Source: a phage
Assembly (NCBI GenBank): GCA_022143435.1
Contig: GCA_022143435.1_3941.1
Reading direction: 5' to 3' (one strand)
DNA: 64,000 nucleotides
In this document: in pieces, positions 30,521-54,155 of the stretch
Position numbering within the stretch: the first letter of the stretch is position 1
How the letters are laid out: each line of letters begins with the position of its first letter
The notes under the pieces: generated by a model
Seen by the model: only the letters and a program-made list of their open reading frames with translations
Told to the model about the DNA's origin: nothing
Database searches by the model: none
Translations under genes and position numbers: made by a program

Positions 30521-30521
30521 A

Positions 30522-30944
30522 TTATTTCTCTCTCAGTTGGTTAAGTTTCTTTCTAGAACATTTTAAGTTTTCGGATGAAGAAAAGTCAAGTGTCTTTTCA
30601 GAACGTGGATAATAGTTCCTATCCCAAGAAGTTTCAACATCGTTAATCAGTGATGCTAGATTACACAGGTCTGTACCACTTTGCAACCTCTTTTTAAGAG
30701 AATCTAGTAAAGCAACTGTGTCTTTAGCTTTACGTCTCGCTGTAGCAACATCTTTCATATGCTCAAATACAGAGCATTTTAAGTCATCTTCATAGTCTTC
30801 AGACAACTCTATTTCATGTTGTATATCAACCATTCTCCTGTGATGGTGAGCATATTCCCGTTGAGCAGCAATGTCAAGTTCTTCCAACTTCTGCAAAGCT
30901 CTAACAAAGTCAGCTATGTCTGGGTGAACAAACATTTTCTGCAT
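30522..30944 (-). CDS. Hypothetical early protein
   Basis: First gene of the leftward block. Confidence 0.4.
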   Translation of the reverse strand: MQKMFVHPDIADFVRALQKLEELDIAAQREYAHHHRRMVDIQHEIELSEDYEDDLKCSVFEHMKDVATARRKAKDTVALLDSLKKRLQSGTDLCNLASLINDVETSWDRNYYPRSEKTLDFSSSENLKCSRKKLNQLREK

Positions 30945-31201
30945 GTAAGCCTCTTTTAAGTAGCTATTAAGTTTTAATCTTTTATCTTAACGTATTCTAT
31001 ACGTTATACTTTAAAGCTTTTTAAAAGCTATTAAATAATCTTTTAAGAGTTTTAAAGTATCTGTATAGTTAAACTGTTAAGTAACCTTTTAAGTAAAAAC
31101 CCACTTCGCAAAGATTAACACCTTGTCAAGTGCATTGTCAACTTGCTTTTTATAATTTTTTGCAGTAATGTATGAGGTTAATGATTTTAGAGGGAGTAAA
31201 A
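30945..31201. promoter_or_regulatory. AT-rich divergent intergenic region between leftward and rightward gene blocks; contains TTGTCA/TTGACA hexamers and TATAAT
   Basis: 257-bp non-coding gap; hexamers present but spacing non-canonical. Confidence 0.4.
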
Positions 31202-33901
31202 ATGGAAAACGTAGATTTTAAAAACTTACATTTAGTTGGTGATACAGAAACTGATGGTTTACTCCTTGAGTTCACTAAAGTGCACGTAATGGCTTTCGCA
31301 GACTATAAATCTGACGATGAAGAGCCGCCTGTATGGGTCTTTACAGATGAGCCTATCCTCGGTCACAAGTATACCAAGTATATTAAGGGTGGCTTACGTG
31401 AAGGTATTGAGTTTGCGTTAAAGGCAAAACGTCTTTGCATCCATAACGGTCTCGGTTATGACTGGTGGGTTTTCAATCACATTGCACCTGATTTATGGAA
31501 CTTTGATAATCCAAAGTGTAAACCGTGGAGTAATTTCTTTCAGGATTCTCTTATCCAGTCTCGTGTTCAGTGGATGGATAGACCAACTCCAAAGGGTTAT
31601 AAAGGTGCTCATGGTTTGGCTGCATGGGGTGCTCGCGTTGGTGTTCGTAAGCCAGAGATTGAGCATTGGGGTGTGTGGAATGCAGAAATCTTCACTCGTG
31701 TTGTAGAAGATATCCGTATTAACGCCAAAACTAAACGGGCACTTGATAACGAGTATCTCAAGCTTAAGAAGTGTGGTATAGACACTTATGAGACTTACAT
31801 GCGAGCTAAAGAAACATCTTTCTGGATGAGTCAACAGGCTATTAATGGCTGGAAAGCTGATAAAGAGCTTATGGAGTTCCATGTGAAGGAACTTGACAAA
31901 TTGACTAATGAGCTTGCTTCAGAGGTTGAACCACATCTACCTCCAACTATTAAGACCAAAGGTAAAGTCACTGGAGAAGAGTTTGCAAAAGCTTGGAATG
32001 AGTATGTTGAAGCATTCGGTCATGCAGATGGACTGAAGAGAATTACCAAGTACCCTAAGACAAAGTACCGTCAGCAGGTACGTAACGGTGAGATGCAGAC
32101 ATACGAAATCAAGCCATTTGGTAAGCCAACTACAAAGATTTTTAACATTGAAAAGAGAAATTGCTATACACCAACCAACTCTGTAACTGGTGAAGAGTAC
32201 AAGGAAGGTTTTGTAGCAATGAAGGATGCTCGTGCAATTTGCAATGAGTTGAACGCAAAGATTGGTAAGAAATGCAAAGACTGGAAGCCAGTAAAAACAG
32301 TCAAAACTGTGAAGTACTATAACAGTCATGTTGTTAACCACTTTGAACTTGAGTCAAGTCGCTACACAGGTTTGATTGATGCACCATATACACCAATTGA
32401 GTTCGAAGTTTCTCGCATGACTCAGGTAGCAGTTGTTAAAGACTACTTGAAATCAGTTGGTTGGATTCCAGATGACTGGAATTACAAGAAAGACTCAGAT
32501 GGTCGCCCTGTCAAAGTTTGTCGTTTCAAAGACAATAAAAAGATGATTACAAAGCATCCTAAGTGGCAGGAAATGGTTGAGCGGTGTGGTTTGAATTATG
32601 TTGAACATGAAGGTGTACAGTACATCGAGCATAACTGGTCTGTGAAGAAATACACAGATTTGCTTGAGCCTTGCTTAATCCGTACTTCACCAAAACTTAC
32701 TGAATCATCTTATGATACGATTGAAGGTGAGCTTGGACAGAAGATTGCTAAGTACTATACTTTGATGCACAGACGCAGAACTATTGAGAACTCAAAGGAT
32801 GATGAAAAAGGTTGGTTGAACCAGATTCGTCCTGATGGTCGCCTTAGTGCTGGCGCAATGGTGTTTGGTACTTCAACTGGACGTATGACACAATATGGTA
32901 TTGTAAACGTACCGTCTGGTGCTGCTGTCTATGGGGAACCAATGAGGGCAGTGTGGATTTGTGAGGAAGGTACTAACGTTGTCTCTGTAGATATGAACTC
33001 AGCCCAGCTAGTTCTTCTTTGTAACTTTATGGGTGATAAAGAGTTCACCAAAGCGGTAACGCAAGGTAAAGAAGAGATTGAGTTTATTCGTCAAGAAGAT
33101 GGACGCTATTACTGCAAACATTTTGATGAGTACCTCAACCCAGAGATTGATAAGTACCTTCGCTATGACTCTGAGAATGACCTGTACGTTGTCTATTCAG
33201 GGACTGATGCACATACACTGAACAGTATCTACTTTAGCTTGAACGATGAGCAGGACATCTTGACTTGTCGAGCTACTCAGGATGAGAATCTTCTTCATGA
33301 GATTAGCAAAGGTCGTAAGAAAGCTAAGAATGGTATCTATGCACTACTGTTTGGTGCAGGTGATGAGAAGTTTGCTAAAACTATTAAGGCAGCCACTACT
33401 CAGGAAGGTGCATTAACTAAACAGACTTACTTTGTGCGTTTGCCAAAGATTAAGAAACTATTAGATAACTTGGAAGCTGACTACAAAGCAACTAAAAAGG
33501 CACTTGAAGAGGTGTTTGGTAAGACCGCTGCAATCTCTAAAGGGGGTTTTGTAAAGGTTGCTGGAGCTTGGTTGTGGTGTAAATCTCCACATAAGTTGTT
33601 GAATTATTTGCTCATGGGTTCGGAAAGTCAGATTCAGAACGAGGCAATTAACCTTGCTTGCCGTCGTATGATTGACGAAGGTTTGATGAAGTTGAACGGT
33701 CGCAAACCAGCTATAGGTGCTCGTTTATTGTGCTCCTATCACGACGAGACAAGTTGGGAATGTCCAGAAAGTATGACGGCAGAGGTGAAGGCTGTCACTG
33801 ATTGGTATTACGGGCAAGCCTCTAAGAACTTAGGACTAAAGAGTGAAACACTGGTAACTGGTACTGGTAAGGTTGGTAAGTCGTGGTTGGAAGTGCATTA
33901 A
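31172..33901 (+). CDS. DNA polymerase, family A with 3'-5' exonuclease domain; probable start at ATG 31202
   Basis: Exo I motif VGDTETDGL; ~900 aa; RBS AGGGAG upstream of 31202. Confidence 0.9.
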   Translation: MRLMILEGVKMENVDFKNLHLVGDTETDGLLLEFTKVHVMAFADYKSDDEEPPVWVFTDEPILGHKYTKYIKGGLREGIEFALKAKRLCIHNGLGYDWWVFNHIAPDLWNFDNPKCKPWSNFFQDSLIQSRVQWMDRPTPKGYKGAHGLAAWGARVGVRKPEIEHWGVWNAEIFTRVVEDIRINAKTKRALDNEYLKLKKCGIDTYETYMRAKETSFWMSQQAINGWKADKELMEFHVKELDKLTNELASEVEPHLPPTIKTKGKVTGEEFAKAWNEYVEAFGHADGLKRITKYPKTKYRQQVRNGEMQTYEIKPFGKPTTKIFNIEKRNCYTPTNSVTGEEYKEGFVAMKDARAICNELNAKIGKKCKDWKPVKTVKTVKYYNSHVVNHFELESSRYTGLIDAPYTPIEFEVSRMTQVAVVKDYLKSVGWIPDDWNYKKDSDGRPVKVCRFKDNKKMITKHPKWQEMVERCGLNYVEHEGVQYIEHNWSVKKYTDLLEPCLIRTSPKLTESSYDTIEGELGQKIAKYYTLMHRRRTIENSKDDEKGWLNQIRPDGRLSAGAMVFGTSTGRMTQYGIVNVPSGAAVYGEPMRAVWICEEGTNVVSVDMNSAQLVLLCNFMGDKEFTKAVTQGKEEIEFIRQEDGRYYCKHFDEYLNPEIDKYLRYDSENDLYVVYSGTDAHTLNSIYFSLNDEQDILTCRATQDENLLHEISKGRKKAKNGIYALLFGAGDEKFAKTIKAATTQEGALTKQTYFVRLPKIKKLLDNLEADYKATKKALEEVFGKTAAISKGGFVKVAGAWLWCKSPHKLLNYLLMGSESQIQNEAINLACRRMIDEGLMKLNGRKPAIGARLLCSYHDETSWECPESMTAEVKAVTDWYYGQASKNLGLKSETLVTGTGKVGKSWLEVH

Positions 33902-34439
33902 TGGTGACAAAATGATTACACAAGAACGTTTAAAGGAACTACTACACTATGACCCCGAAACAGGGGTCTTTACTTGGCTTCGTAGGGAGGGTGACTCAAG
34001 GGCTGTTAAAGTCTTTAATAGTCGGTACGCAGGACAGGTAGCGGGGAGCATCCAGATTGACTCAACTGGTCATAATCAGATTACTATCTATTTTGACAAG
34101 AAAGCACATAAAGCGCACAGACTCGCATGGCTGTACGTGTATGGTAGGCTGCCGAAAGGTGTTATTGACCATGTTAATGGGGACTCCCTTGATAACAGGA
34201 TTGTAAACTTAAGAGAAGCAGATGACTACCAAAGTGCTTGGAATAAAAGCAAACTATCCACCAATAAATCAGGCTATAAGGGTGTAAGCCTGAAGAAGAA
34301 GTCTGGTAGGTGGGTTGCGCAAATAAGCTATAAAGGTAAAAAGATGTCATTAGGCTACTATGACACACCAGAAGAGGCCCATAAAGCTTACTGTGAAGCT
34401 GCTGTAAAACTCCACGGAGAGTTTGCAAAACTAAGTTGA
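33873..34439 (+). CDS. HNH homing endonuclease with AP2 domain (paralog of 23810-24334)
   Basis: Shared LHYDPETGVFTWL N-terminus, HNH core (IDHVNGDSLDN) and AP2-like SGYKGVSLKKKSGRWVAQI. Confidence 0.6.
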   Translation: MVSRGWKCINGDKMITQERLKELLHYDPETGVFTWLRREGDSRAVKVFNSRYAGQVAGSIQIDSTGHNQITIYFDKKAHKAHRLAWLYVYGRLPKGVIDHVNGDSLDNRIVNLREADDYQSAWNKSKLSTNKSGYKGVSLKKKSGRWVAQISYKGKKMSLGYYDTPEEAHKAYCEAAVKLHGEFAKLS

Positions 34440-34490
34440 CAAGGTGCTCAGGGAAGAGTACCTTATACTATATCTTGTATAGGAGGGCTT

Positions 34491-34700
34491 ATGAGCCACC
34501 GTGGAAGAACCCATGCAGCGATGATGAAAGGTGCTTCAAAGGAGACTATCAAAAATCGTAAGCAGAAGTTGTTTGAGAGGATGAACAGGTTAATTGACAA
34601 TTCATCTCTTTCAGGTTCTGAGAAGGTTTTCTTGAAAGGTAATCTGAAAAGCATTGCACAAGAACTTATTGACATTGAGTATTGGAGACATCAAAAATGA
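34491..34700 (+). CDS. Small hypothetical protein
   Basis: ORF. Confidence 0.35.
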   Translation: MSHRGRTHAAMMKGASKETIKNRKQKLFERMNRLIDNSSLSGSEKVFLKGNLKSIAQELIDIEYWRHQK

Positions 34701-34909
34701 CACTTGCAGACGTTATTCAGCAACTTCATGATAACTGCTACACTCCAGAGTTAATTCAGGAGATGTCCATTGTAGTCATGCCTAGCAAGTTCGTAAAAAC
34801 CTTTAACAACGACGCTTTAAGGTCTACACACATCCTTATCGTTGACGGTAAGATTGCAAAAGACCGTACTGGAGTACTCAAAGGTGAACGTATTGACATT
34901 AACTTTTAA
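34682..34909 (+). CDS. Small hypothetical protein
   Basis: ORF. Confidence 0.35.
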   Translation: METSKMTLADVIQQLHDNCYTPELIQEMSIVVMPSKFVKTFNNDALRSTHILIVDGKIAKDRTGVLKGERIDINF

Positions 34910-34926
34910 GTATTGGAGAAATCAAA

Positions 34927-35139
34927 ATGACTTATGAAGAAGCTGTTGAAGCAATGAAGCAGGGTAAGAAAGTTCGTAACGAGAACTTCACACCTGATGA
35001 GTTCTTTGAAATGAAAGACGGAAAGATTGTCTGTGAAATGGGTTACCCAATGGCTAAATGGTATCGTGGACTTGATTGGCAGAAAACTGGATGGAGTGTT
35101 GTAAAGGACTCTCCAAAAGCTTCTGATTTATTCTTTTAA
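34927..35139 (+). CDS. Small hypothetical protein
   Basis: ORF. Confidence 0.35.
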   Translation: MTYEEAVEAMKQGKKVRNENFTPDEFFEMKDGKIVCEMGYPMAKWYRGLDWQKTGWSVVKDSPKASDLFF

Positions 35140-35148
35140 GGAAATACT

Positions 35149-35355
35149 ATGCAAGTTTTAGTAAACTATATCTACCGTTATGATGTTATCCACTCAACCA
35201 ATACAGTTGCTCAACGCAACCCTATTGTACCACGAGAAGGTGAGTGGGTTCGTATTGATGGTTGGATTTATACTGTAGAGAATGTTATCCACAAATTTGA
35301 TGTGGGTGATGATACTCAAGTGATTGATGTAGAGATTGGTGGGAAGAGAAAATGA
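35149..35355 (+). CDS. Small hypothetical protein
   Basis: ORF. Confidence 0.35.
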   Translation: MQVLVNYIYRYDVIHSTNTVAQRNPIVPREGEWVRIDGWIYTVENVIHKFDVGDDTQVIDVEIGGKRK

Positions 35356-36455
35356 CAATTCTGTACAAACAAAATAAAGATGGCTCTTTTAACGTCTGGT
35401 CATGCGTTGCTGTAGGTGACAAAGTGGTTACCACGTATGGCAAAGAAAATGGCAAGATGATGTTTGAAGAGTACACAGCAGAACCAAAAAACATCGGCAA
35501 AAAGAATGAGCGTAACGCTGAACAGCAAGCTCTCTTTGAAGTTGCTGCTAAATACAAGAAGCAGGTTGACCGTAAAGGCTATGCTTATTCAAAATCTGCT
35601 GCACAGGAAGTTGAGAAGGTTGGTGTACAGCTTGCACATGATGCTTCCAAGGTTAGTCATGCAAAGTATCTGAAATTCCCTGCTGATGCTCAACCAAAAC
35701 TTGACGGTGTTCGTTGCAGGATTTCTCGTCATCAAAGTCTTGGTGGAATGTTTACAGCTTATTCTCGTGAGAATACGGTTTACAACATCCCCGAAGAATT
35801 GATTCCAGATATAACTATGATGCTCAAACTTCATAAAGATGTGGATGAGTTTGACGGTGAGATTTATGCTCATGGTTGGGACTTGGAAGATATTGTATCC
35901 ATGATTAAGAATGCTGACAATCCAGACCGTCACCTACTTAAATTCTACTGGTATGATATCTGCGATAATTCTAAATCTTGGCCTGAGCGTCGTGAAATCA
36001 TTGATAACTCACCAATCGTTGAACTCGGTGATGCTTGCAGGGTTGTACCTGTTCAAACTATCCGTGTTAACTCTTGGGAAGAGTTCGACAAAGCCCATGA
36101 TAATTGGGTTAAGCTGAAGTTTGAAGGGGCTATGTACCGTTCAATCTCTGAAGAATCTTTCTACGAGTGTAGTCACCGTTCATACTTCTTAATCAAGCAT
36201 AAGAAGATGCACACTGAAGAGTTTAAAGTAACTGGTGTGAAAACTGATAAACGTGGTCATGGTAAGTTTGTTGTAGAGACTCTTCCTAACGTCTTTGTAG
36301 ATGTTTCATGGAAAACTACCCATGAGAAGAAGAAGTATCTTGCTGAACATCCTGAAGAGTTTATCGGGAAACCTTTGACGGTTCAGTTCCAGAAGATGAC
36401 TCGTAGGGGGTCTTTACAGTTCCCTGTTGGGTTAGTTATCAGAGATTATGAATAA
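35352..36455 (+). CDS. ATP-dependent DNA ligase
   Basis: Motif I KLDGVR (KxDG adenylation lysine). Confidence 0.8.
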   Translation: MTILYKQNKDGSFNVWSCVAVGDKVVTTYGKENGKMMFEEYTAEPKNIGKKNERNAEQQALFEVAAKYKKQVDRKGYAYSKSAAQEVEKVGVQLAHDASKVSHAKYLKFPADAQPKLDGVRCRISRHQSLGGMFTAYSRENTVYNIPEELIPDITMMLKLHKDVDEFDGEIYAHGWDLEDIVSMIKNADNPDRHLLKFYWYDICDNSKSWPERREIIDNSPIVELGDACRVVPVQTIRVNSWEEFDKAHDNWVKLKFEGAMYRSISEESFYECSHRSYFLIKHKKMHTEEFKVTGVKTDKRGHGKFVVETLPNVFVDVSWKTTHEKKKYLAEHPEEFIGKPLTVQFQKMTRRGSLQFPVGLVIRDYE

Positions 36456-36461
36456 AAGTTG

Positions 36462-36489
36462 TTGACATAGAAAATTTGGTGAGTATACT
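36462..36489 (+). promoter_or_regulatory. Sigma70-like promoter TTGACA-16 bp-TATACT
   Basis: Hexamers and spacing read in sequence. Confidence 0.5.
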
Positions 36490-36519
36490 GAGCAGCATAA
36501 ACCAACGGGTACTCACCAG

Positions 36520-36770
36520 CATCACTTAAGAGCCTTTCTAAGAGGGTTTTTAAGTGAGGTTCGGTATGGTACAGTAGGCTCTGGCTTGGTATGGTTTGGT
36601 GATGTTCGGTGTGGTACGGCGGTGTAAGGTATGGTATGGGTAGTTAGTCTCAGCTACATTAAAATGAGACTTACCTTTTTAAAAGGTCTTTAAAAGGGTC
36701 TTTTAATAAGGTATGGTGAGGTAGGGTTAGGCGAGGTCAGGTTTGGTAAGGTATGGGTGGATGGTAGCAG
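36520..36770 (+). repeat. Composite non-coding repeat, copy A: hairpin, (NGGTN)n pentamer tract, hairpin, 2x AAGGTCTTTTAA, (NGGTN)n tract
   Basis: Aligns with 38045-38255; see findings. Confidence 0.8.
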
Positions 36771-36846
36771 CCACGTTAAAAATCTACCAAGTTTCTAAAG
36801 AGTCTTCTGTTGAGGGTTCTTTACAAACAACTTAACAATCAACTAA

Positions 36847-37452
<606 letters not shown>

Positions 37453-37454
37453 TT

Positions 37455-37895
37455 ATGAATACAAAAGCATTAGCAGCAAAGTTTAGTTACGGTGACACTG
37501 TATCACATTCTGAGATGGACACCTTCTTAGGTATTGTGAAGCCAACTTATCAAGGTGACATTGTTAAGTACGAAGATGAAATGAAGGCTTATGCACTTAC
37601 ACGTCTAAACCGACTTGAGAAGTTTATTGAAAAGCTTCTTAAAGAAGAGAAGATTTATCTGGTTGCTTCAATGGGTGTTGGTTATCGTGTGGTTGAACCT
37701 AAGCATCAAGCAACTATTGCAAAACGTAAAATGTCTGGTAAGATTGGTCGTGCTTTAAAGCAAGCCACTCAAGCGATTGAGAATGTGAATACTATGGCAC
37801 TTAGTCATCAAGAACGTTCACGACTGATTGAACAGCAAAACCATTTAGCTGCTATGAAAGCTAACATTAACAAGCAACGTAGAAAACCTTTCTAA
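37455..37895 (+). CDS. Hypothetical protein
   Basis: ORF; no recognised motif. Confidence 0.45.
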   Translation: MNTKALAAKFSYGDTVSHSEMDTFLGIVKPTYQGDIVKYEDEMKAYALTRLNRLEKFIEKLLKEEKIYLVASMGVGYRVVEPKHQATIAKRKMSGKIGRALKQATQAIENVNTMALSHQERSRLIEQQNHLAAMKANINKQRRKPF

Positions 37896-37903
37896 GTTGA
37901 CTA

Positions 37904-37930
37904 GGAAGCCTCTTCGGAGGCTCCTTTTTA
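37904..37930 (+). terminator. Rho-independent terminator (GAAGCCTC-TTCG-GAGGCTCC then TTTTT)
   Basis: Inverted repeat plus T-run. Confidence 0.6.
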
Positions 37931-38255
37931 AAAGGTCTTTTAAGAAGGTCTTTTAATGAGGTAAGGTGCGGTCTGGTAAGGCATGGTATGGTTGGGTGAG
38001 GTGAGGTATGGGTAGTTAATCGGAGCTACATTAAAATTCGATTACATCACTTAAAAGTCTTCTAAGAGGATTTTTAAGTGATGTTCGGTAGGGTCTGGTA
38101 GGGTGAGGTATGGGTAGTTAGTCTCAGCTACATTAAAATGAGACTTACCTTTTTAAAATGTCTTTAAAAGGGTCTTTTAACAAGGTATTGTATGGTGTAG
38201 TTTGGTTAGGTATGGTTAGGTGTGGTAAGGTAGGGTATGGAAGGATGGCAGTAGC
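37930..38255 (+). repeat. Composite non-coding repeat, copy B (one partial plus one full unit)
   Basis: Same element order as copy A; see findings. Confidence 0.8.
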
Positions 38256-38291
38256 CTTATAAAAAATCTGCCAAATAAGCTATAAAATCTG

Positions 38292-38327
38292 TTGACAAGT
38301 CAGGTGTTATAGCTTATTTTTATACTC
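38292..38327 (+). promoter_or_regulatory. Promoter-like element TTGACA...TATACT with non-canonical 24-bp spacing
   Basis: Hexamers read in sequence; spacing atypical. Confidence 0.3.
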
Positions 38328-38364
38328 AATGTAATACAAAATTTAATATAACTTTGAGGTCATT

Positions 38365-38748
38365 ATGAAAAAGATTTTATTAGCTGCTGCAATGGTTATG
38401 GCAATGAATTTACCAGTCAATGCAACAGAACTTCCAAATGTGGACTTATCAGGTGTTCCAGAAGACACTTGCCAGATTGTAAAAGGTGTTGCTCTAGCTA
38501 ATGGTGAGCTACTTAAACCAATCTCTGAAGAGTCTTTGACAGAGATGACTGATAAAGTAACTGACTATCAGTATCGTGTTCTTGCAGAGTATTTCCTGCA
38601 ATCTGCAAACATTAAAGAGAAGCACCATGAAGATATTGATGTACAGGCTATGCTAAATCATCGTATCCAGTTTAAAGAAGATTTGATGCAAAAAGCTATG
38701 TATGGTGTTGAGTATTTCTTAGAAAACAGAAGCTGCACAGGTATTTGA
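38365..38748 (+). CDS. Secreted/periplasmic protein of unknown function
   Basis: N-terminal signal peptide. Confidence 0.45.
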   Translation: MKKILLAAAMVMAMNLPVNATELPNVDLSGVPEDTCQIVKGVALANGELLKPISEESLTEMTDKVTDYQYRVLAEYFLQSANIKEKHHEDIDVQAMLNHRIQFKEDLMQKAMYGVEYFLENRSCTGI

Positions 38749-38749
38749 T

Positions 38750-38962
38750 ATGGCTCTTAAAAAGTTACATCCCAGAAGTGGTTATGGTAAGATAGTCGAT
38801 GATACAGACGGCTTTACAGTATTTACAGTCATCTGTCAAGATGATTCACAGATTGAAAAGGCTCTTGATGATTATCTTAACGATGAACGTGAAAAGGTTA
38901 GGGCTACAAACATAGATTCATTAATTGACACTTCACGTAAACGGAAGAAGAAAGATGAATGA
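38750..38962 (+). CDS. Small hypothetical protein
   Basis: ORF. Confidence 0.35.
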   Translation: MALKKLHPRSGYGKIVDDTDGFTVFTVICQDDSQIEKALDDYLNDEREKVRATNIDSLIDTSRKRKKKDE

Positions 38963-39254
38963 AGTTTTTGACCCTTATGCTCCACAAGATGATTGGGAGG
39001 CTGACAGAGAGGCTGAAATGGAGAGTTATGTTTGTCCAATGGATGTAGACGAAATGAGAGATTTCGTTGCACACCGTTTTAAGAAAGAGATTAAATCCAG
39101 AGGTCTTTCTCAAGAGCAAGTTGCTAAAATTTGTGGTATCTCTCAGGCTCGCGTATCCAACATAATCCACCTCACTGGTAATGTCTCCCTTGAGTATATG
39201 TTGGAAGTATGTGAAAAATTTGGTGTTAATTTCAATTTAAGGCTGGCAGATTAA
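38925..39254 (+). CDS. XRE-family helix-turn-helix DNA-binding protein (likely start 38955)
   Basis: SQEQVAKICGISQARVSNI HTH segment. Confidence 0.5.
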   Translation: MTLHVNGRRKMNEVFDPYAPQDDWEADREAEMESYVCPMDVDEMRDFVAHRFKKEIKSRGLSQEQVAKICGISQARVSNIIHLTGNVSLEYMLEVCEKFGVNFNLRLAD

Positions 39255-39255
39255 T

Positions 39256-39615
39256 ATGAAACGTGAAAACATTATCCACTCTGAAAACTTCGCATTAGGC
39301 TTTTATGGTGTACCTACTCACCTTGAAAAGTATTATGGTGTGAAGATTCTCTCCAATCTCATTATGGCTTACAAAGATGGTAAGATTAAGCATACTGAGA
39401 AGAAACGTGTCATGGGCTATATGGCTGTAGGTTCAGCAATCTCGAACATTAAGCTGGAAACAACTAGCAGTCAGATTGTGAAAGACCACTTCATCAAAGA
39501 GCTTTACCAGAATCTTGATGGTGTAGATGTTCAGGCTGTTTGGCTGGATGTTGACGGTCATAACTACACGAGTTTTGTTTTCAAAAACGACGACATTAAG
39601 TGTCTGTTCCCATAA
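39256..39615 (+). CDS. Hypothetical protein
   Basis: ORF. Confidence 0.4.
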   Translation: MKRENIIHSENFALGFYGVPTHLEKYYGVKILSNLIMAYKDGKIKHTEKKRVMGYMAVGSAISNIKLETTSSQIVKDHFIKELYQNLDGVDVQAVWLDVDGHNYTSFVFKNDDIKCLFP

Positions 39616-39628
39616 TAGGTGATTAACT

Positions 39629-40144
39629 ATGATTGATATCTACTTACAAGATGCTCATGCAGATTTCCTTAAAACGATGCTTAAAAAGTTTATGGCTTCA
39701 CAGGGTGATAATGAAGCATCTTTTAAAATAGTCACATGTGGCGACGAAGCTGGTTTTGTTGAGATTGAACATGAAGATACTGGAAAGACTGTTTGTAAGT
39801 TACCTGATAGCATGTTCTCTAACACGTTCTTAACAAAGACTAGTATAAATGTTAAGCTTGTGCCTCAGATTGAAACATACTCTGGTACAGATTACCCTAA
39901 AGGTTTTAAGTCACTGATGAAGTACTTCTTAGATGACTTTGTGGGTAATCTTCTGAGGGAGGTAAAAGAAAGTCGTACAGTGTTGACTGTAGAGAACATG
40001 GGAGGAACTATCAAGGTCACTTCTGACTGTTTTGTTATGAGCCTCTTCGACTTCGTTCCTAAGAACTTTGATGGTATTCTGGATGAAGAAGATGACTGTG
40101 TAGACTTTATATTGGTTCTTGAGCCAGTTTTTGAGGTTAAATAG
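39629..40144 (+). CDS. Hypothetical protein
   Basis: ORF. Confidence 0.4.
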   Translation: MIDIYLQDAHADFLKTMLKKFMASQGDNEASFKIVTCGDEAGFVEIEHEDTGKTVCKLPDSMFSNTFLTKTSINVKLVPQIETYSGTDYPKGFKSLMKYFLDDFVGNLLREVKESRTVLTVENMGGTIKVTSDCFVMSLFDFVPKNFDGILDEEDDCVDFILVLEPVFEVK

Positions 40145-40405
40145 ATGAAAATTGAACACTGCTATGAGTCTGACGGAACACCTATACGTTGTCCACATTG
40201 TGGGTGTACAGACTTGCAAGGTGAAGTTCATGTGATTGTTAATGGTCATATAGCTGAAGAAAGTACTACATGTGTTGGTTGTGGTGAGCAACTATCATTC
40301 TGGGCTTATGGTTCATACCAACCCTCTCCACATTTTATCTACCATCGTAGTAAAGTTGTGAAGAGTGTCATCAACTGGTTCATTAAGAAAGGGTTTACAA
40401 AATGA
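40145..40405 (+). CDS. Small zinc-ribbon protein
   Basis: CPHCGC...CVGCG. Confidence 0.4.
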   Translation: MKIEHCYESDGTPIRCPHCGCTDLQGEVHVIVNGHIAEESTTCVGCGEQLSFWAYGSYQPSPHFIYHRSKVVKSVINWFIKKGFTK

Positions 40406-40947
40406 TTAAGCTAATATTTGCAAGTGGTGAAAACGGTGAATTTGGTACTCCAACTGGTATGCCGTGGCCTCGACATAAACAGGACATGCAAGAGTTTAAG
40501 AGACTCACTAAAAACAACTTAGTAGTGATGGGGAATGAGACTTTCAAGACTCTGGGTAGTAAACCTTTACCAGAACGTGCAAACCTCATCTTAACAAACT
40601 CTGTACCATACTTAGGCATAGACTTTGGCAAAGATGAGGTAATGTATGCTAAGGCCAGCAAAGAATCCTTTGGAGCATTTTTGAAGTATCTCGATAGCTC
40701 TATTGATGAAGATATCTTTGTAATTGGTGGTGCAGGTGTCCTTGTCAATGCTTTACCATATGCTGGTGTAGTTTTCCATACAGTTTTCCATAAAGTTACT
40801 GAAGAGGCCACTGTGTATTTACCTTTTGAAAACTTCTTTGAGAAGCTGTATGATAACCGTGTATTTACAAAGGTACAGTCAAAACCCTCAGATGATGGTA
40901 AAGCAACCTTTGAGATTTATGTTCCACAAGTAAAAGGACACTTTTGA
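40402..40947 (+). CDS. Dihydrofolate reductase
   Basis: N-terminal MIKLIFASGENGEFGTPTGMPW DHFR motif; adjacent to thymidylate synthase. Confidence 0.8.
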   Translation: MIKLIFASGENGEFGTPTGMPWPRHKQDMQEFKRLTKNNLVVMGNETFKTLGSKPLPERANLILTNSVPYLGIDFGKDEVMYAKASKESFGAFLKYLDSSIDEDIFVIGGAGVLVNALPYAGVVFHTVFHKVTEEATVYLPFENFFEKLYDNRVFTKVQSKPSDDGKATFEIYVPQVKGHF

Positions 40948-40948
40948 T

Positions 40949-41848
40949 ATGTCACAAGCTGATTTGAGTTACAAAAATATCCTGAACCATGTTTTATCCG
41001 TTGGTGAACTGCGTACTACACGAACTGGGGATGTTATCTCTGCATTTGCTCCACCACAGTTTCGTTTTGATATGAGAACTGGTTTCCCACTCTTAACATC
41101 TAAACAGGTGTTTACACGGCAAGTTATTGGGGAAGCTTTATGGTTCCTGAATGGTGAGAATAAACTTGGTGAACTCCGTTATCGCACTTGGGGTGAAAAT
41201 GATGGAGAACGTTGGACTATCTGGTCAGATGATTTTAAACGTTGGTTAAGCTCTAACTATTCTTCTGAGCAAGACTGGTTAGAAGATGCAGGTGGGAGAA
41301 TCTACGGGGTTCAGTGGAGAAACTTTGAAGGTCATAATGGTTGTGTTGTAGACCAGTTAGAAACCTTAGTAACGAAGATGAAAGGTGATATCACAGACCG
41401 CTACATGCTTGTTAATGCTTGGAATGCAGCAGATATTGCAGCAAACTCGATGGCTTTAGCACCTTGTCATGTTCTGTTTCAGATTTATATCACCAACGAA
41501 GGTGAAGTAGATTTGCAATGGTATCAGCGTTCTGTAGACACATTTTTAGGACTTCCGTTTAACATTGCATCTTATGGTTTTATTCTGGAAGTTCTTTGTA
41601 AGATGACTGGATACACCCCACGGTACTTGATAGGTGTCTTTGGGGATACTCAGATTTATCAGAACCATATGAAGCAGGTTTATGAACTGATAAACAATGA
41701 AGAGTTCCATGCACCTACTTTTGAGATTGGTGTGCAGCTTAACACTTTAAGTGACTTAAAACATCTTACTGCAAGTGATTTTATTGGTGGCATTAACAAC
41801 TACCAACATGCAGGGAAGATTGAAGCACCTCTGTCAGTAGGCAAGTAA
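40949..41848 (+). CDS. thyA: Thymidylate synthase (ThyA type)
   Basis: Assigned from overall ThyA-like N-terminal sequence pattern, ~300 aa length, and DHFR immediately upstream. Confidence 0.85.
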   Translation: MSQADLSYKNILNHVLSVGELRTTRTGDVISAFAPPQFRFDMRTGFPLLTSKQVFTRQVIGEALWFLNGENKLGELRYRTWGENDGERWTIWSDDFKRWLSSNYSSEQDWLEDAGGRIYGVQWRNFEGHNGCVVDQLETLVTKMKGDITDRYMLVNAWNAADIAANSMALAPCHVLFQIYITNEGEVDLQWYQRSVDTFLGLPFNIASYGFILEVLCKMTGYTPRYLIGVFGDTQIYQNHMKQVYELINNEEFHAPTFEIGVQLNTLSDLKHLTASDFIGGINNYQHAGKIEAPLSVGK

Positions 41849-41851
41849 AAC

Positions 41852-41880
41852 AAAAAAGGCTCCCGTAAAAAGGAGCCTTA
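41852..41880. terminator. Bidirectional rho-independent terminator (AAGGCTCC-loop-GGAGCCTT) between convergent thyA and structural block
   Basis: Inverted repeat flanked by T-runs on both strands. Confidence 0.6.
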
Positions 41881-41884
41881 AACT

Positions 41885-42256
41885 TTATTTTTCAGTATTC
41901 TTTGTGTTCTTTTCAGTAATAGCTTGGAGGGCTGATACTGATTGAGCCAGATTGTTCACACTGTCAGAGAATTTATCAAGAGTTTTGGTAAGTTTTGCGT
42001 TTTCACCCTTAACATTCTCTAACTGAACTTTCTGGTTCTCCATCCCTAGCTGAATCAGTCTCATGTCAGACTGTAAATCACGAATAGCTGAATAGTTACT
42101 TTTGGAATAATTATCTAGCTGCTGTAACTTTGTTGTGACAGACACTTCTTGTTTACCACTTGAAACTTGCATAGTGGTATACATCCCAATAACACTAAAA
42201 ATACCAACTACAATTGCACCAATATTATTTTTAAAAGCTTCCTCTAGCCACTTCAT
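41885..42256 (-). CDS. Membrane-anchored coiled-coil protein
   Basis: N-terminal TM helix then helical region. Confidence 0.35.
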   Translation of the reverse strand: MKWLEEAFKNNIGAIVVGIFSVIGMYTTMQVSSGKQEVSVTTKLQQLDNYSKSNYSAIRDLQSDMRLIQLGMENQKVQLENVKGENAKLTKTLDKFSDSVNNLAQSVSALQAITEKNTKNTEK

Positions 42257-42451
42257 TTATTTCTCCCCCTTAAAAGCTTTTTCTAAGTTATCTACGAACT
42301 CATCATCAATAGGTGTGTCTGTTTTACTCGCAAGGTATCTTGCAAGCTTAAAGAACACTTTCTCAATCATGTATTCACTTAGAAGGGATAAAATGAGTTT
42401 CCAGAAGAAGCTACCTAGATTTTTTAGAAGAATTGCTAGGATTGTAGGCAT
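42257..42451 (-). CDS. Small membrane protein (possible holin-like)
   Basis: Hydrophobic N-terminus, charged C-terminus. Confidence 0.3.
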   Translation of the reverse strand: MPTILAILLKNLGSFFWKLILSLLSEYMIEKVFFKLARYLASKTDTPIDDEFVDNLEKAFKGEK

Positions 42452-42530: not shown

Positions 42531-44921
42531 TTAAGCAGTTCTTACCCAAGCCATTAACTTGTAGAACTGGTTAGTAACACTAAATGCTGAACCAGAACCT
42601 GTACCACCAGTGTTACCACTAACTGTATGGGTGTGAGCACCAATACCTACAGAGTGGGTGTGAGCACCAGTGTTACTTGTAGTACCAGACCATGTGTGTG
42701 TATGGTTACCAGTTGTGTTAGTGTTAGGGAACTTGTTATCAGTTCTGTCAAGCCAGTCAAGAGTTCTCGTCTTGTTATTGCTAACAGTTGTATAACCGTA
42801 CTGAGCATCACCACCATTAACCAATAGTAGACCTAAGTGGTGAGCGTGGTTACCAGCAGCACTTGTTGTACCACTTACAGAGTGAGTATGACCACCAGTG
42901 CTATTAGTGCTCTTCGTACCATAATCAAAAGATGAAGTGGTAGCAGAGAAACTATGGGTGTGTGATGGTAAGTTACCAACAGCTAACGTCACAGAATCTG
43001 AACCGCCAGTTGTAGCAACATCTGAACCGTTTGCTGCTGCAATCCTGATAGTTCTACCAACACCATTGTTAAGGTACGTCCAAGTTAGACCAGGAAGTGC
43101 CGTATTAGGGTCAACATTACTGTTAAACCACGTTACAATGCCTACTGGATAGATTTTGTTAAGGTCTGTAGAGTCACTGATTGCTTCTGCAATCTTCTGG
43201 TCAGTTTCTGCTTTAGTATATGCACCGATATCTGAGGGTGCTGGTTTATCTTGGTCTGTATAGATTTTAGCCCATGTATTCTCAAAACCATACCCATCTC
43301 GTGCTGTCCTGTACCAAATACCACCATTCCTGTAGCTAAACTTCAACTGTGCAGTTGGTGTTGAGCCACCACCGATATACATCTGATAAACCAGATGTGT
43401 TGAACCACCAGATTCCCTTGTAACATTATACAAACCAGTTCTAGCATTCCAAGCAATACCATCCCCACCACCAGCCTCTGTACCATTGCCAGTAGAGATA
43501 GCATACATGTACCTATAGTCTGCGGTAGATTGCGTGTAATATCTAGCATCTAAGTTAGCCCAATCAGAAGGTTGAACTTGACCAGTAATGGCTAAATTCT
43601 TATTCGCAACAATTGCTGATGGTTCAAGGGCAATTTGAGTACCAGAGTAACTATTGTTTAAGGTTACCACATTAGAGTTTGGGCCACCTACACCTAACCA
43701 CCACCTCGATACGTTCGCGGTATCCACACCACGGATATATAGTGGTTGCCCCTGTGTCAAGTTTCTTAATACTAAACCTTCGTTATTTGCTACGATAGTC
43801 TGCACATTCACAAATGTGTTAGCAACATTAAGTTTAGGCAGGTTACTCAAAGTTGCGGCTGGGATATATCTAGAGTCAATGTTAGTCCAATCAGAGGGTT
43901 GAACTTGACCAGTGATTTTTACACTCTTATTAAATGTAGCACCAGACGAGTTTAAGACAATTGAGGTGTTGCCCTTGTAATCGTAAAATGTGATATTGTC
44001 ATTTGCATCACCTTTACCGATATACCACAGATTATTGTTTTCAACATCTTTTGCTAGGATGAACAAAGACTCATTAACAGCTTTATTTTTTAGCATGATA
44101 GCAGCAGCATTAGAGCTGACACTAACATAGTTGCTGAAGGTGTTTAAACCACTAAAAGTGTTATTAGCAGTTAACTGTGCAAACCTCTGATTAGCTGCTG
44201 TCTGAGTAAAATATCTAGCATCTAAGTTAGAGAAGTCAGATGGTTGAACTTGACCAGTGATTCTTAGGGTTTTACTAATAGCAGCAACACTAGACAGATT
44301 AACTTCACAACCTGTCTTGTAGTTGTGGATAATAACATTGTCATTCACTGAACCATTACCTACATACCACCTATTAGCACCAGTGCTATCCTGACCTCTA
44401 ATATACAACGGTGAGTTCTCAGAAGAGTTTTTTAGTCTAATAGCTTCACCATTTGCTTGAATAACCTGTTGGAAGGTAAAGATGTTATTTGCAGCTAATC
44501 TTGAGTATCTTGCATCATTCTCTTCATTAGTTCTCATCCCAAGTTCATTAGGACTTGGCTTATTCAGAGTATGATAAACAGTTGCCGACCTTGAAGCATC
44601 TGCAATAGTTAGTTTAAGGCCATTTGCATTGATTTTAAAAGTCTTTAAAACATCCCCAATAGTAATCTCAGAAGAGCCTGTTGGGTTAAAGACTACCTTA
44701 CCACCATAAAGTAACTTAACAATCCCTAAATCACCCGTCATAGTACTACCAGCAATCTGAACAAATCTTTCAAGTTTAAAAGATGCTAAGAAATCTTGAT
44801 AGGTCATTCGACGGTCTTCATCGCCAAGCATTTCAGGTCTCTTTTTAACTCTGACATGAAGAAGGTCATCTGAACGGATTGTATCGATTGAGTTTAATTC
44901 ACTCAACTTGTAATCTGCCAT
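42531..44921 (-). CDS. Tail fibre protein with three internal ~110-aa repeats and C-terminal His-X-His box domain
   Basis: Triplicated [16 protein letters not shown] segments; C-terminal HTHS/HAHH/HTHT repeats. Confidence 0.7.
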
Positions 44922-44933
44922 TATAAATTTTCC

Positions 44934-44960
44934 TCTTAAAAGGGGCTATCAAGCCCCTGT
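44934..44960 (-). terminator. Hairpin AGGGGCT-ATCA-AGCCCCT downstream of tail fibre gene
   Basis: Inverted repeat with T-run on minus strand. Confidence 0.5.
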
Positions 44961-44967
44961 AAAGAAA

Positions 44968-46155
44968 TTAAGCTGTTCTCTGCCATACATACAGTACGAA
45001 GGATGGCTGCTCAATGTTGAAAGCTTGTCCACCACCAACACTGTTAGTATTCCCGCTATGTGTATGCTCAGAAGAAGAAACTGTCACAGTACCATTGTGC
45101 GTATGTGAACCAATACCAACCGTATGACTGTGAGCACCGATACCTACAGAGTGAGAATGGTCACCAGTTGTGTTAGTAGTAACACTGAAAGAGTGAGTGT
45201 GTGCACCAGCTACTTCACAGACAGCATCTGCTGAGTACCATGATTGGTCATTTCTTGTAGACCAAACCATTGCAGGTCTTTCCGATAGGCCACCACCTGC
45301 TTCATATGTCAATCTGTGGTTGTGAGCACCAGCAGAACTTGTTGACCCACTACCAACATGGTTATGGTTACCAGTCGTGTTAGTGGTTTTAGTTCCATAG
45401 TCAAAAGAGTTAGTAGTCTTAGTTCCATAATCAAAAGCTGAAATTGACACCGTTGCATTATGAGTATGACCACCACCACTAAGAGACACAGAGTGAGAGT
45501 GTTGAGGCATGTTATTAACTGACAAAGTGACAGTTGAAGCACCAAATACAGAACCTGCTGGTCTTGTGTCAGAGTCATAACCAACCAATGCTCTACCCTT
45601 TGAAACTAACTCCCAAGTACCTCCACAAATTAAATATGTAGAAGGGTTTGCAGAGTTCATGGAAAGATGGATAGTACCTACTGGATAGGAAGCCTGAACA
45701 GCCTTGTACAAGTTATTTACTGCTCTTGCTGTAGCATACTTATCTGCATCTTCGTTATAAAGGTTAGATGTTGTCCAGTTCTGAACATTACTCAATCCTA
45801 CCTGTGCCTTAGTTGTATTATGTGGGTTGCTCTTGTCCTGAATATGCTGTTGAACAAGATTATTAACCTCTTCTGAAGACATAATCTGTAGATTTGCTCT
45901 TGCCTGAGCTACATTAGTAACGTCTGATAAGTTATTTGCAGCAACTAACTGAAGAGCATTGATAACGTTATCTAAACCAATTTGTGTTTTAGTAACACCA
46001 TGAGGGTTATTTCTTAGGCTTGAGTGTGGAGCAAGTAATTGCTCAAGAGTACATCTCTTATCCTCAATACCCTGCTTAAGATGGAAGATATCACTAAGGT
46101 CAATTGGTAAGGCTGCTTGAGGCAAGGCACTAATTTGAATTTCACCTACCGCCAT
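44968..46155 (-). CDS. Tail fibre protein (second, paralogous C-terminal His-box domain)
   Basis: NPHGVTKTQIGLDNV / NPHNTTKAQVGLSNV fibre repeats; C-terminal HSHS/HTHN/HNHV repeats. Confidence 0.7.
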   Translation of the reverse strand: MAVGEIQISALPQAALPIDLSDIFHLKQGIEDKRCTLEQLLAPHSSLRNNPHGVTKTQIGLDNVINALQLVAANNLSDVTNVAQARANLQIMSSEEVNNLVQQHIQDKSNPHNTTKAQVGLSNVQNWTTSNLYNEDADKYATARAVNNLYKAVQASYPVGTIHLSMNSANPSTYLICGGTWELVSKGRALVGYDSDTRPAGSVFGASTVTLSVNNMPQHSHSVSLSGGGHTHNATVSISAFDYGTKTTNSFDYGTKTTNTTGNHNHVGSGSTSSAGAHNHRLTYEAGGGLSERPAMVWSTRNDQSWYSADAVCEVAGAHTHSFSVTTNTTGDHSHSVGIGAHSHTVGIGSHTHNGTVTVSSSEHTHSGNTNSVGGGQAFNIEQPSFVLYVWQRTA

Positions 46156-46157
46156 TA

Positions 46158-54155
<7,998 letters not shown>

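Follow-up and report, generated by a model that had tools for sequence, protein, structure and literature searches.

For phage VpaE1, both fibre proteins were reported in 2015 to be homologous to the T4 gp37 adhesin (PMC4690856). In 2025, two fibres combining domains of the T7 gp17, Mu and T4 gp37 types were described for phage Sf14, which is devoid of Mu-type chaperones, and the hypothesis was published that the two fibres may bind different receptors (PMC11821841). In the cryo-EM study of phage Bas63 from the same year, a collar, an H-x-H needle and a head were identified in both fibres, with 6 and 7 motifs counted, and AlphaFold models fitted into the density revealed a reversal of the chain at the head (PMC12609058). 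The motif counts of 6 and 7 were reproduced here on the Bas63 sequence. For the genus Felixounavirus, the receptor is of the LPS type (PMC8594841). The fibre pair, its gp37-like tips and the two-receptor hypothesis are thus already known. The pair has been textbook knowledge for the genus since 2025, and its observation in a further phage adds nothing on the adsorption of Felixounavirus. The variability of the shaft domains was flagged by the Bas63 authors as unexpected and unexplained (PMC12609058).

The fibre module of the window

The stretch of DNA analysed here, referred to as the window, comprises 64 kb of a genome of ~88 kb. It is 95.9% identical in nucleotides to Felixounavirus LF82P1, and 246 phage records match it, chiefly Escherichia and Salmonella phages of Felixounavirus. 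Judged by these matches, the window belongs to a Felixounavirus, a Felix O1-like myophage.

The order of the genes, coding for proteins of 489, 285, 100, 395, 796, 64 and 123 aa, is that of bas63_0023 to 0029. Synteny with the Bas63 genes 0023-0030 was found gene for gene, with 97-99% identity for the neighbouring proteins and 74% and 69% for the fibres. As in the Felixounavirus pair, the fibre genes follow those of wedge 2, wedge 1 and the 100-aa platform, precede two small open reading frames and are convergent with thymidylate synthase. For the Bas63 orthologue of the 100-aa protein, gp25, a role as a T4 gp9-like platform of the long fibre was described (PMC12609058). A scan for promoters and terminators inside the fibre module gave none above the shuffled expectation, the sole terminator-like hairpin being found at 41856-41879.

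The first-pass annotation, made from the sequence alone, had located both fibre genes exactly and had rightly named them as such. The 796-aa protein matches the PHROG tail fibre family phrog_4277 over its full length (E 0) and is 68.8% identical to bas63_0027 over 796 aa, while the 395-aa protein matches the tail fibre family phrog_2097 (E 6.5e-136) and is 74% identical to bas63_0026 over 395 aa; synteny supports the orthology to Bas63 gp27 and gp26. At least 80% of the protein is covered by 169 phage records for the short and by 299 for the long fibre. Very probably, the two genes are best explained as a whole as the standard Felixounavirus fibre module of one short and one long tail fibre (Table 1). 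In public records, the names given to the two genes vary widely, with 'hypothetical protein' at one extreme and 'long tail fiber', applied to the short fibre, at the other; the assignment is of practical use for annotation.

Table 1. Fibre genes, their parts and the adjacent platform gene (residue numbers refer to the respective protein).
Feature	Position in the window	Strand	Basis
100-aa protein, Bas63 gp25 orthologue	46158..46460	(-)	99% identical to bas63_0025, same position
Short tail fibre gene, 395 aa, orthologue of Bas63 gp26, Sf14 gp52, VpaE1 gp74	44968..46155	(-)	ORF, phrog_2097, synteny
Short fibre N-terminal part, aa 1-150	45706..46155	(-)	91-99% conserved in 23 relatives
Short fibre collar domain, aa 151-215	45511..45705	(-)	Pfam Gp10_C, E 3.1e-18
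Short fibre needle, descending strand, aa 216-280	45316..45510	(-)	H-x-H at 219, 230, 264, 278
Short fibre head segment, aa 281-316, predicted distal receptor-contacting tip	45208..45315	(-)	Low conservation; position equivalent to T4 gp37 head
Short fibre needle, ascending strand and C-terminus, aa 317-395	44971..45207	(-)	H-x-H at 319, 333, 342, 351, 364
Long tail fibre gene, 796 aa, orthologue of Bas63 gp27, Sf14 gp53, VpaE1 gp75	42531..44921	(-)	ORF, phrog_4277, synteny
Long fibre conserved N-terminal region, aa 1-125	44547..44921	(-)	91-98% conserved in 21 relatives
Shaft repeat 1, aa 126-220; body aa 141-220 is the variable cassette	44262..44546	(-)	Sequence homology
Shaft repeat 2, aa 221-335, with opening linker of 17 residues	43917..44261	(-)	Sequence homology
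Shaft repeat 3, aa 336-445, with opening linker of 17 residues	43587..43916	(-)	Sequence homology
Third linker copy and Mu S/P2 H/P1 S-like domain, aa 446-590	43152..43586	(-)	PF12604, 8ju3
Long fibre collar domain, aa 591-650	42972..43151	(-)	Weak Pfam Gp10_C, below curated cut-off
Long fibre needle, descending strand, aa 651-695	42837..42971	(-)	H-x-H at 654, 678, 692 (HAHH)
Long fibre head segment, aa 696-736, predicted distal receptor-contacting tip	42714..42836	(-)	Mean conservation 19-26%
Long fibre needle, ascending strand and C-terminus, aa 737-796	42534..42713	(-)	H-x-H at 740, 754, 763

The tips of the two fibres and their use

Both fibres end in the Gly/Ser/Thr-rich domain with many H-x-H motifs that had been noticed at first sight: Gly, Ser and Thr together make up 0.36-0.50 of the tips, and the motifs HTHS, HSHS, HNHV and HAHH are all present. 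Six H-x-H motifs were identified in the 796-aa protein and nine in the 395-aa protein, whereas shuffles of the same sequences contained 0.35-1.4 on average, and 0 of 20,000 reached the observed counts. The two C-termini are homologous, with 34% identity between aa 591-796 of the long and aa 157-395 of the short fibre (BLASTP, E 4e-22).

The proposed kinship to the tips of T4-type long tail fibres was borne out for both proteins. In a phmmer search of the PDB, the crystal structure of the T4 gp37 tip (2XGF) was matched by aa 146-367 of the short fibre (E 1.5e-27) and by aa 649-775 of the long fibre (E 6.9e-20). In a three-way alignment, for which the H-x-H positions of T4 were taken from the T4 genome sequence, six of the seven T4 motifs (883, 915, 929, 966, 980 and 989) have an H-x-H counterpart in both fibres; for motif 998, one is present in the short fibre only, which also contains two extra motifs. 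Conserved residues at the C-terminus can be matched to the end of T4 gp37, ...VWQRTA of the short fibre being placed on ...IVRLA, as would be compatible with a chain reversal at the head. The collar of the short fibre matches the structures of the T4 gp10 C-terminal domain (2fkk, 5hx2) and the collar of 2XGF. The collar of the long fibre is 33% identical to that of the short fibre and is conserved to 91-98% in 20 of 21 relatives, and to 61% in the divergent L017. The tips had also been called paralogous. Their homology holds, but a recent duplication does not, since with 34% identity they are as far from each other as from T4 gp37 (37-39%).

In the remainder of the short fibre, the motif NPHxxTKxQ[IV]GLxNV occurs twice in the N-terminal part, at aa 50 and 110, and FDYGTKTTN is tandemly duplicated in the descending strand of the needle. 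The N-terminal part would be the baseplate-binding domain by analogy to the assignment from the Bas63 cryo-EM (PMC12609058).

The head segments stand apart from this conserved frame. In the short fibre, the head is the counterpart of the T4 gp37 head in the alignment, between T4 motifs 929 and 966; its mean conservation is 27-36% compared to 78-99% in the rest of the protein, and its identity to relatives is bimodal, either 8-19% or 94-100%. For the long fibre, nine allele classes of the head were identified in 22 fibres. The heads of the two fibres share only 12% identity and are unrelated; both are hypervariable across the genus and assort independently. Because of this low identity, hypervariability and independent assortment, the dual receptor specificity that had been suggested is plausible.

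On the basis of homology and of the published relatives, each of the two fibres is predicted to be a homotrimer, which would be anchored to the baseplate by its conserved N-terminus; by sequence homology, each ends in a tip of the T4 gp37 type. In this tip, the chain would pass from the collar into a descending needle strand, turn at the small head and ascend again. The H-x-H motifs on both strands would point inward, with the three chains coordinating a column of metal ions, which is iron in T4; trimer formation, chain reversal and metal binding are thus all predicted. The number of metal sites is uncertain, given the nine motifs in the short fibre of the window versus seven in Bas63 and T4. 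A single-sequence AlphaFold2 prediction of the short fibre gave no usable fold (mean pLDDT 30.7); a monomer would in any event be a poor test of an intertwined trimer. The H-x-H motifs would serve as structural rivets rather than as the receptor site, and the two unrelated heads would contact different surface structures, most likely epitopes of the LPS core.

It is proposed that the long fibre scans first and that the short fibre binds second, as has been suggested for Bas63 and Sf14 by analogy to T4. Alternatively, the two fibres might broaden the host range in parallel, either one being sufficient on different hosts. The hypervariable heads, assorting independently across the genus, would suit such a role, as would the same type of tip on both fibres, the T4 short fibre gp12 being built differently; moreover, both fibres are named 'long tail fibers' by the Sf14 authors (PMC11821841). 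However, the fibres of Bas63 are attached to different baseplate proteins with different occupancy, and a T4-like sequential use was proposed for them (PMC12609058); parallel use is considered rather unlikely.

The shaft of the long fibre and the exchange of cassettes

Between anchor and tip, the long fibre contains three shaft domains that resemble the pyramid domain of T7 gp17, together with a single domain of the Mu S type. The triplication of an internal domain in the larger fibre, already recognised in the first-pass annotation, was found by BLASTP of segments, by hhalign and by PF20744. When the undivided 796-aa protein was compared with itself by BLASTP, only the trivial match was obtained, and the repeats emerged after it was split into segments. 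Any two of the three bodies share 33-36% identity (E 5e-16 to 1e-18), with hhalign probabilities of 99.8-99.9%, and PF20744 matched three stretches with an E value of 1.9e-67 and 223.8 bits compared to a cut-off of 21.7. A profile of the three repeats matches residues 368-432 of T7 gp17 (E 5e-6; structures 4a0t and 7boz), and repeat 2 matches the pyramid domain (4a0t) with E 4e-5. The conserved N-terminal region of the long fibre showed no homology to the repeats by hhalign. The segments aa 55-125 and 470-590 were considered as degenerate shaft repeats, five such domains being given in the Bas63 paper, and were rejected at the sequence level (hhalign probability <4%).

While the number of repeats was correct, their register has to be revised. 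Each repeat had been taken to start at the motif ITGQVQPSD[FW]xN[LI]D[AS]RY, which is present at aa 221, 336 and 445. The first repeat body, however, precedes the first motif and starts with a degenerate linker of 14 residues, and the third copy of the motif opens not a repeat but the PF12604 domain of the Mu S/P2 H type; the first residue of this copy, Ile445, is encoded by the last codon of repeat 3. PF12604 was identified at aa 477-585 (E 7.4e-22, 77.7 bits, cut-off 22.5), and the domain matches the Mu tail fibre S structure 8ju3 (E 1.9e-22) and, in tblastn, P2-like gpH, P1 S and Mu S. In relatives with a long fibre of 840-871 aa, the Mu-like domain is swapped for a longer, unrelated module.

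In the DNA, the repeat is weak and spans 43587-44546 instead of the region of about 43400-44300 given before. It is recognisable only over a 79-nt linker core, at 43539, 43866 and 44211, with 71-76% identity. The first-pass annotation had seen in these repeats a likely site of recombination altering the fibre, and unequal crossing-over between them could in principle change the repeat number or produce hybrids, and hence shift the host range. The threefold linker core offers some substrate for this: exact matches between units extend to 9-21 nt, with the ones that reach 17-21 nt lying inside the linker motif, and the presence of cassettes in different slots in different phages implies that ectopic exchange has happened at least a few times. 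Whole units, however, are just 56-64% identical in nucleotides, and the repeat number is constant. Neither loss nor gain of a repeat was found in the 21 complete genes of 24 IMG/VR loci or in Bas63, LF110P1 and vB_CECAV_041; the complete relatives keep three repeats at a length of 777-812 aa, or of 840-871 aa with the extra length in another module, and none of 18 species showed variation (PMC12609058). Unequal crossing-over as the source of host-range variation is considered very unlikely.

Variation was instead found in the bodies. Among the relatives, the identities of the modules are bimodal, about 30% versus 75-100%, and 8-10 allele classes exist per module. Similarities differ from module to module: in L002, body 1 is 98% and body 2 is 32% identical to the window, while the respective values in L014 are 36% and 88%. 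Four-gamete violations were identified among the modules, and nucleotide identity falls from 95-98% to 43-60% within 60 nt, with the breakpoints at the linkers. In addition, near-identical cassettes (93-100% in nucleotides) occur in different slots of different phages. The slot-1 body of the window has its counterpart in slot 3 of phage LF110P1 (87% identity), and its slot-3 body has one in slot 1 of Bas63 (~70% identity).

A relaxed constraint with fast neutral divergence, without any exchange of cassettes, is among the three possibilities raised for the shaft variability in PMC12609058, and variable bodies between linkers conserved to 73-96% in 20 of 21 relatives would be expected from it. 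It fails to account for the bimodal identities, the incongruent module similarities, the four-gamete violations, the abrupt jump in nucleotide identity and the near-identical cassettes in different slots, and is hardly tenable. Comparison among the relatives shows that heads, shaft-repeat bodies and the Mu-like domain are discrete cassettes which assort independently between conserved linkers. That the linkers are junctions of recombination between phages, and that cassettes have moved between repeat slots 1 and 3, is well supported. In a search of the literature, no specific account of such shuffling was found for the fibres of Ounavirinae.

Short-homology recombination at the ITGQVQPSD...RY linkers and at the conserved N-T-F codons would give rise to new combinations in the shaft, with cassettes passing from phage to phage as well as between slots 1 and 3 of the repeats. 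The shaft domains might represent a second, combinatorial determinant of specificity, by lateral contacts to surface glycans or by evasion of a defence system; this functional meaning is speculation, and we regard it as doubtful. In practical terms, the module map may help in host-range engineering of Felix O1-type therapeutic or diagnostic phages: linkers as natural junctions, swappable heads and shaft bodies, and the moves between slots indicate where chimeras are likely to fold.

Comparison with known fibre systems

The long fibre of T4 is a chain of proteins ending in gp37, whereas each fibre here is a single protein. The T4 gp37 tip (2XGF) has the same order of collar, needle and head, with H-x-H motifs on either side of the head, and a stretch of 14 residues is near-identical. 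However, the overall identity is just the 37-39% given above, the heads are unrelated, and the number of H-x-H motifs is seven in T4 compared to six in the long and nine in the short fibre. A homologue of T4 gp38 was not found by tblastn in the 64-kb window (best E 0.19), nor did the two small genes downstream of the fibres match a chaperone family. The missing gp38 in the window is a difference in assembly from T4 and not a ground for exclusion from this class of tips. The T4 gp37 head binds OmpC or LPS, whereas the receptor for the genus described here is of the LPS type (PMC8594841).

The pyramid domain of T7 gp17 (4A0T) is matched by the shaft repeats. In the window, it is present in three tandem copies with conserved linkers between them, and unlike in T7 gp17, no T7-type tip domain follows.

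The same combination of T7 gp17-like, Mu-like and T4 gp37-like parts, in fibres of ~391 and ~792 aa and without a Mu-type chaperone, is present in Sf14 (gp52/gp53; Ounavirinae, Mooglevirus; PMC11821841) and in VpaE1 (gp74/gp75; PMC4690856). The relatives of Sf14 (Sf13, Sf15-17) are more distant, with ~54% identity for the long and ~69% for the short fibre.

Bas63 (Escherichia phage JohannRWettstein) shares the genus and the gene order with the window, in addition to flanking proteins of 97-99% identity. In both its gp26 and its gp27, a baseplate-binding domain at the N-terminus is combined with a collar, needle and head of the gp37 type, and its long fibre likewise contains six H-x-H motifs with an extra His beside the third. 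In contrast, the short fibre of Bas63 comprises 382 aa with seven motifs, compared to 395 aa with nine motifs here, and the heads of Bas63 are alleles different from those of the window. Five beta-helix shaft domains were defined for Bas63 by structure (PMC12609058), whereas three homologous domains were identified here by sequence.

The fibre genes and their surroundings

The two fibre proteins are encoded by consecutive genes separated by 46 nt, at the end of a baseplate gene row in which they follow the genes for three proteins of 489 aa (Baseplate_J), 285 aa (DUF2612) and 100 aa. The DNA of the fibre region is 95.9% identical to that of Felixounavirus LF82P1 and matches 246 phage records, mostly from Escherichia and Salmonella phages of Felixounavirus. 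Gene order and protein sizes are the same as for genes 0023-0030 of Bas63, the neighbouring proteins being 97-99% identical, but the short fibre only 74% and the long fibre only 69%. On the basis of the identity to LF82P1 and of the order, sizes and neighbour identity shared with Bas63, the window belongs to a Felix O1-like myophage, and the gene pair codes for its short and long tail fibres. The annotation of this pair is inconsistent across public records (KT184314, LC739530, OR498728, MZ501086). Several records have the short fibre as 'hypothetical protein', the Bas63 record has it as 'long tail fiber protein', and in the KhF2 record a 'cos site' and a terminator are annotated inside or between the fibre genes.

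Positions of features in the fibre region and in related loci
Feature	Position	Strand or protein	Remarks
Short fibre gene	44968-46155	minus	ORF, 395 aa
Long fibre gene	42531-44921	minus	ORF, 796 aa
Two small ORFs	41885-42451	minus	64 and 123 aa; directly after long fibre gene
Terminator-like hairpin	41856-41879		9 bp, GC-rich, T-runs on both sides; between convergent genes
207-aa protein	49208-49831	minus	upstream in baseplate row; PF18352 N-terminal domain, E 6e-20
Three homologous shaft domains	aa 126-220, 221-335, 336-445	long fibre	from pairwise comparison
Cross-slot cassette, slot 1	44262-44501		window
Cross-slot cassette, slot 3	43602-43841		window
Cross-slot cassette, L011/L014	L011:4150-4450; L014:4850-5150		IMG/VR loci
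Tandem 10-aa duplication	45380-45442 (aa 241-260)	minus, short fibre	DNA spacing 30 nt
Single FDYGTKTTN unit	42904-42936	long fibre

The two small ORFs are 97-98% identical to bas63_0028 and 0029, and neither matched any chaperone or lysis family. The 123-aa product has a hydrophobic stretch at the N-terminus, with the rest being coiled-coil-like. In phage Sf14, gp55, two gene numbers past the long fibre gp53, is listed as a virion-associated 'holin or lysozyme' (PMC11821841). The hairpin faces the convergent thymidylate synthase gene (plus strand, ending at 41848), while the last ORF of the fibre operon (minus strand) ends at 41885; it looks like a bidirectional terminator. Within 30000-42000, the sign of the GC skew flips twice, near 30-31 kb and near 42 kb, coinciding with a plus-strand block (dihydrofolate reductase, thymidylate synthase and others) between minus-strand structural modules. 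The 207-aa protein, the third protein of the module with a His-X-His (H-x-H) motif, contains a single one, H188/H190 (FNEHTHHYY). It corresponds to the central puncturing needle of Bas63, for which the same motif was described and iron binding was proposed.

Related His-box tips

The H-x-H motifs, six in the long fibre and nine in the short fibre, all lie within the C-terminal Gly/Ser/Thr-rich part; shuffled sequences contained a mean of 0.35-1.4, and 0 of 20,000 shuffles reached the observed counts. The two C-termini, aligned as a check, are 34% identical (E 4e-22). Both observations bear out the first-pass annotation, which had described related domains of this kind at the ends of both fibres. 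The crystal structure of the T4 gp37 tip (2XGF) was matched by the short fibre with E 1.5e-27 and by the long fibre with E 7e-20. In a three-way alignment with T4 gp37 residues 785-1026, both fibres have H-x-H at the T4 motifs 883, 915, 929, 966, 980 and 989, while T4 motif 998 is retained in the short fibre alone, which has two further motifs beyond those of T4. For the collar, the match is to the C-terminal domain family of T4 gp10. The C-terminal residues of the fibres align with the gp37 C-terminus, consistent with the known topology, where the chain turns at the head and goes back to the collar. By these alignments, both tips are homologues of the T4 gp37 receptor-binding tip, with its collar, needle and head.

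Identity between the fibres is 33% in the collar, 42% in the needle strands and 12% in the head segments, and the 34% between the two tips is no higher than the 37-39% of the tips to T4 gp37. The head segments are thus unrelated, and the two tips are old members of one family, with no recent duplication.

The short fibre needle contains a tandem duplication, FDYGTKTTNS/FDYGTKTTNT, of which the long fibre has one copy, and T4 gp37 contains a comparable pair ([19 protein letters not shown]). This suggests that the needle grows through short internal duplications.

The long fibre shaft and exchange of its modules

The three shaft domains are pairwise 33-36% identical (E 5e-16 to 1e-18, hhalign probability 99.8-99.9%), and Pfam PF20744 matches the long fibre three times. 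Three copies of the linker motif [13 protein letters not shown] are present, at aa 221, 336 and 445. Since the copy at aa 445 opens into a different domain, the triplication described in the first-pass annotation holds, but its register is shifted by one unit. On the DNA level the repeat is visible only as a 79-nt linker core of 71-76% identity; exact matches between units are no longer than 9-21 nt, and the ones of 17-21 nt fall in the linker motif. With the shaft-repeat profile, the pyramid domain of T7 gp17 was hit at residues 368-432 (E 5e-6), and for aa 477-585 the match is to the fibre domain of Mu S/P2 H/P1 S (PF12604, E 7e-22; PDB 8ju3, E 2e-22). By these matches and the one to T4 gp37, the long fibre is a chimera in which a conserved anchor is followed by three shaft domains of T7 type, a Mu-like domain and a tip of T4 type.

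For comparison, 24 IMG/VR loci (complete long fibre gene in 21) were used together with Bas63, LF110P1 and vB_CECAV_041. The short fibre is conserved save for the head (aa 281-320) and adjoining needle, with nine H-x-H in most relatives and seven in the alleles of 382 aa, one of which is that of Bas63. Conserved parts of the long fibre are the anchor (aa 1-140), linkers, collar and C-terminus. Its variable parts are the three repeat bodies between the linkers, the Mu-like domain and the head. Complete long fibres have 777-812 or 840-871 aa, a different module replacing aa ~478-547 in the latter. Long fibres with two or four repeats were not found among the complete genes, in agreement with the constant repeat number in the Bas63 paper (PMC12609058). 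In two loci (L013:3818-6188 and L019:3750-6093), two ORFs take the place of the single frame (541+259 aa and 453+311 aa), owing perhaps to a frameshift or a sequencing error, or because the gene is truly split; apparently truncated long fibres were noted in EC6 and Si3 (PMC12609058).

The analysis of cassettes rests on about 25 genes and BLAST tables. Identity of the modules to those of the window has a bimodal distribution (roughly 30% or 75-100%) and is incongruent between modules: for bodies 1 to 3, the Mu-like domain and the head, it is 98, 32, 81, 17 and 93% in L002 and 36, 88, 38, 22 and 0% in L014. In 22 fibres, 8-10 allele classes per module were identified, in 13-17 pairwise combinations with four-gamete violations. 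At the linkers, nucleotide identity jumps between 95-98% and 43-60% inside one 60-nt step. The shaft bodies thus appear to be exchanged as units. The heads of the two fibres assort independently as well; in L020, they are 100% (short) and 10% (long) identical to those of the window.

Bodies were also found in other slots, the slots being the positions of the three repeats. Slot 1 of L011 and slot 3 of L014 hold bodies with 85% identity on the protein level and 93-100% on the DNA level over ~290 nt, a stretch that includes the downstream linker; the flanks are at 33-57%. For the slot-1 body of the window (aa ~147-238), DNA identity to the slot-3 body of LF110P1 is 87-100% (flanks 30-40%) and protein identity to that of Salmonella phage vB_CECAV_041 is 72%. 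The slot-3 body of the window matches the slot-1 body of Bas63 (~70% protein identity). Slot-2 bodies were found in slot 2 only, among the best 40 records. The exchanges end at conserved N-T-F codons upstream and an ITGQV.PSD...RY linker downstream. The repeats are therefore recombination substrates via cassette replacement, not copy-number change. The proposed role of the DNA-level repeats in recombinational variation is supported in this other form; whole units are only 56-64% identical in DNA, and repeat number is unchanged in the complete genes compared. Slot-to-slot shuffling, of which no description was found in the searchable literature, is a modest side observation absent from the first-pass annotation.

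Predicted function and comparison to known systems

By homology, each fibre ends in a gp37-type needle, with the H-x-H motifs as counterparts of the T4 metal sites. From T4 and the structures of Bas63 and Sf14, both fibres would be trimeric, the histidines of three chains would bind a column of metal ions stiffening the needle, and the head at the far end would contact the receptor. The unrelated, hypervariable and independently assorting heads suggest that the two fibres recognise different structures; the receptor class for Felixounavirus is LPS (PMC8594841, PMC4690856). Only analogy suggests that the long fibre would bind first and the short fibre second. The variability of the shaft bodies may reflect mere tolerance of change or a role in recognition or defence evasion, the three options given in PMC12609058.

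The observation of a His-box fibre pair was confirmed and its interpretation supported in part, but the finding is already known from three phages. For VpaE1 (2015, PMC4690856), both fibre proteins were described as homologous to the T4 gp37 adhesin, with conserved N-termini and a variable middle of the long fibre. Sf14 (2025, PMC11821841) has two fibres, one of 430 Å and one of 630 Å, whose parts resemble T7 gp17, Mu and T4 gp37 and which 'may bind different receptors'. For Bas63 (2025, PMC12609058), the description covers a tip of collar, needle and head bearing H-x-H motifs on both fibres, a gp9-like platform and an unexpected variability of the shaft domains. Compared to these systems, the peculiarities of the window are allelic: nine short-fibre motifs rather than the seven of Bas63, and a set of head alleles and a cassette combination of its own.
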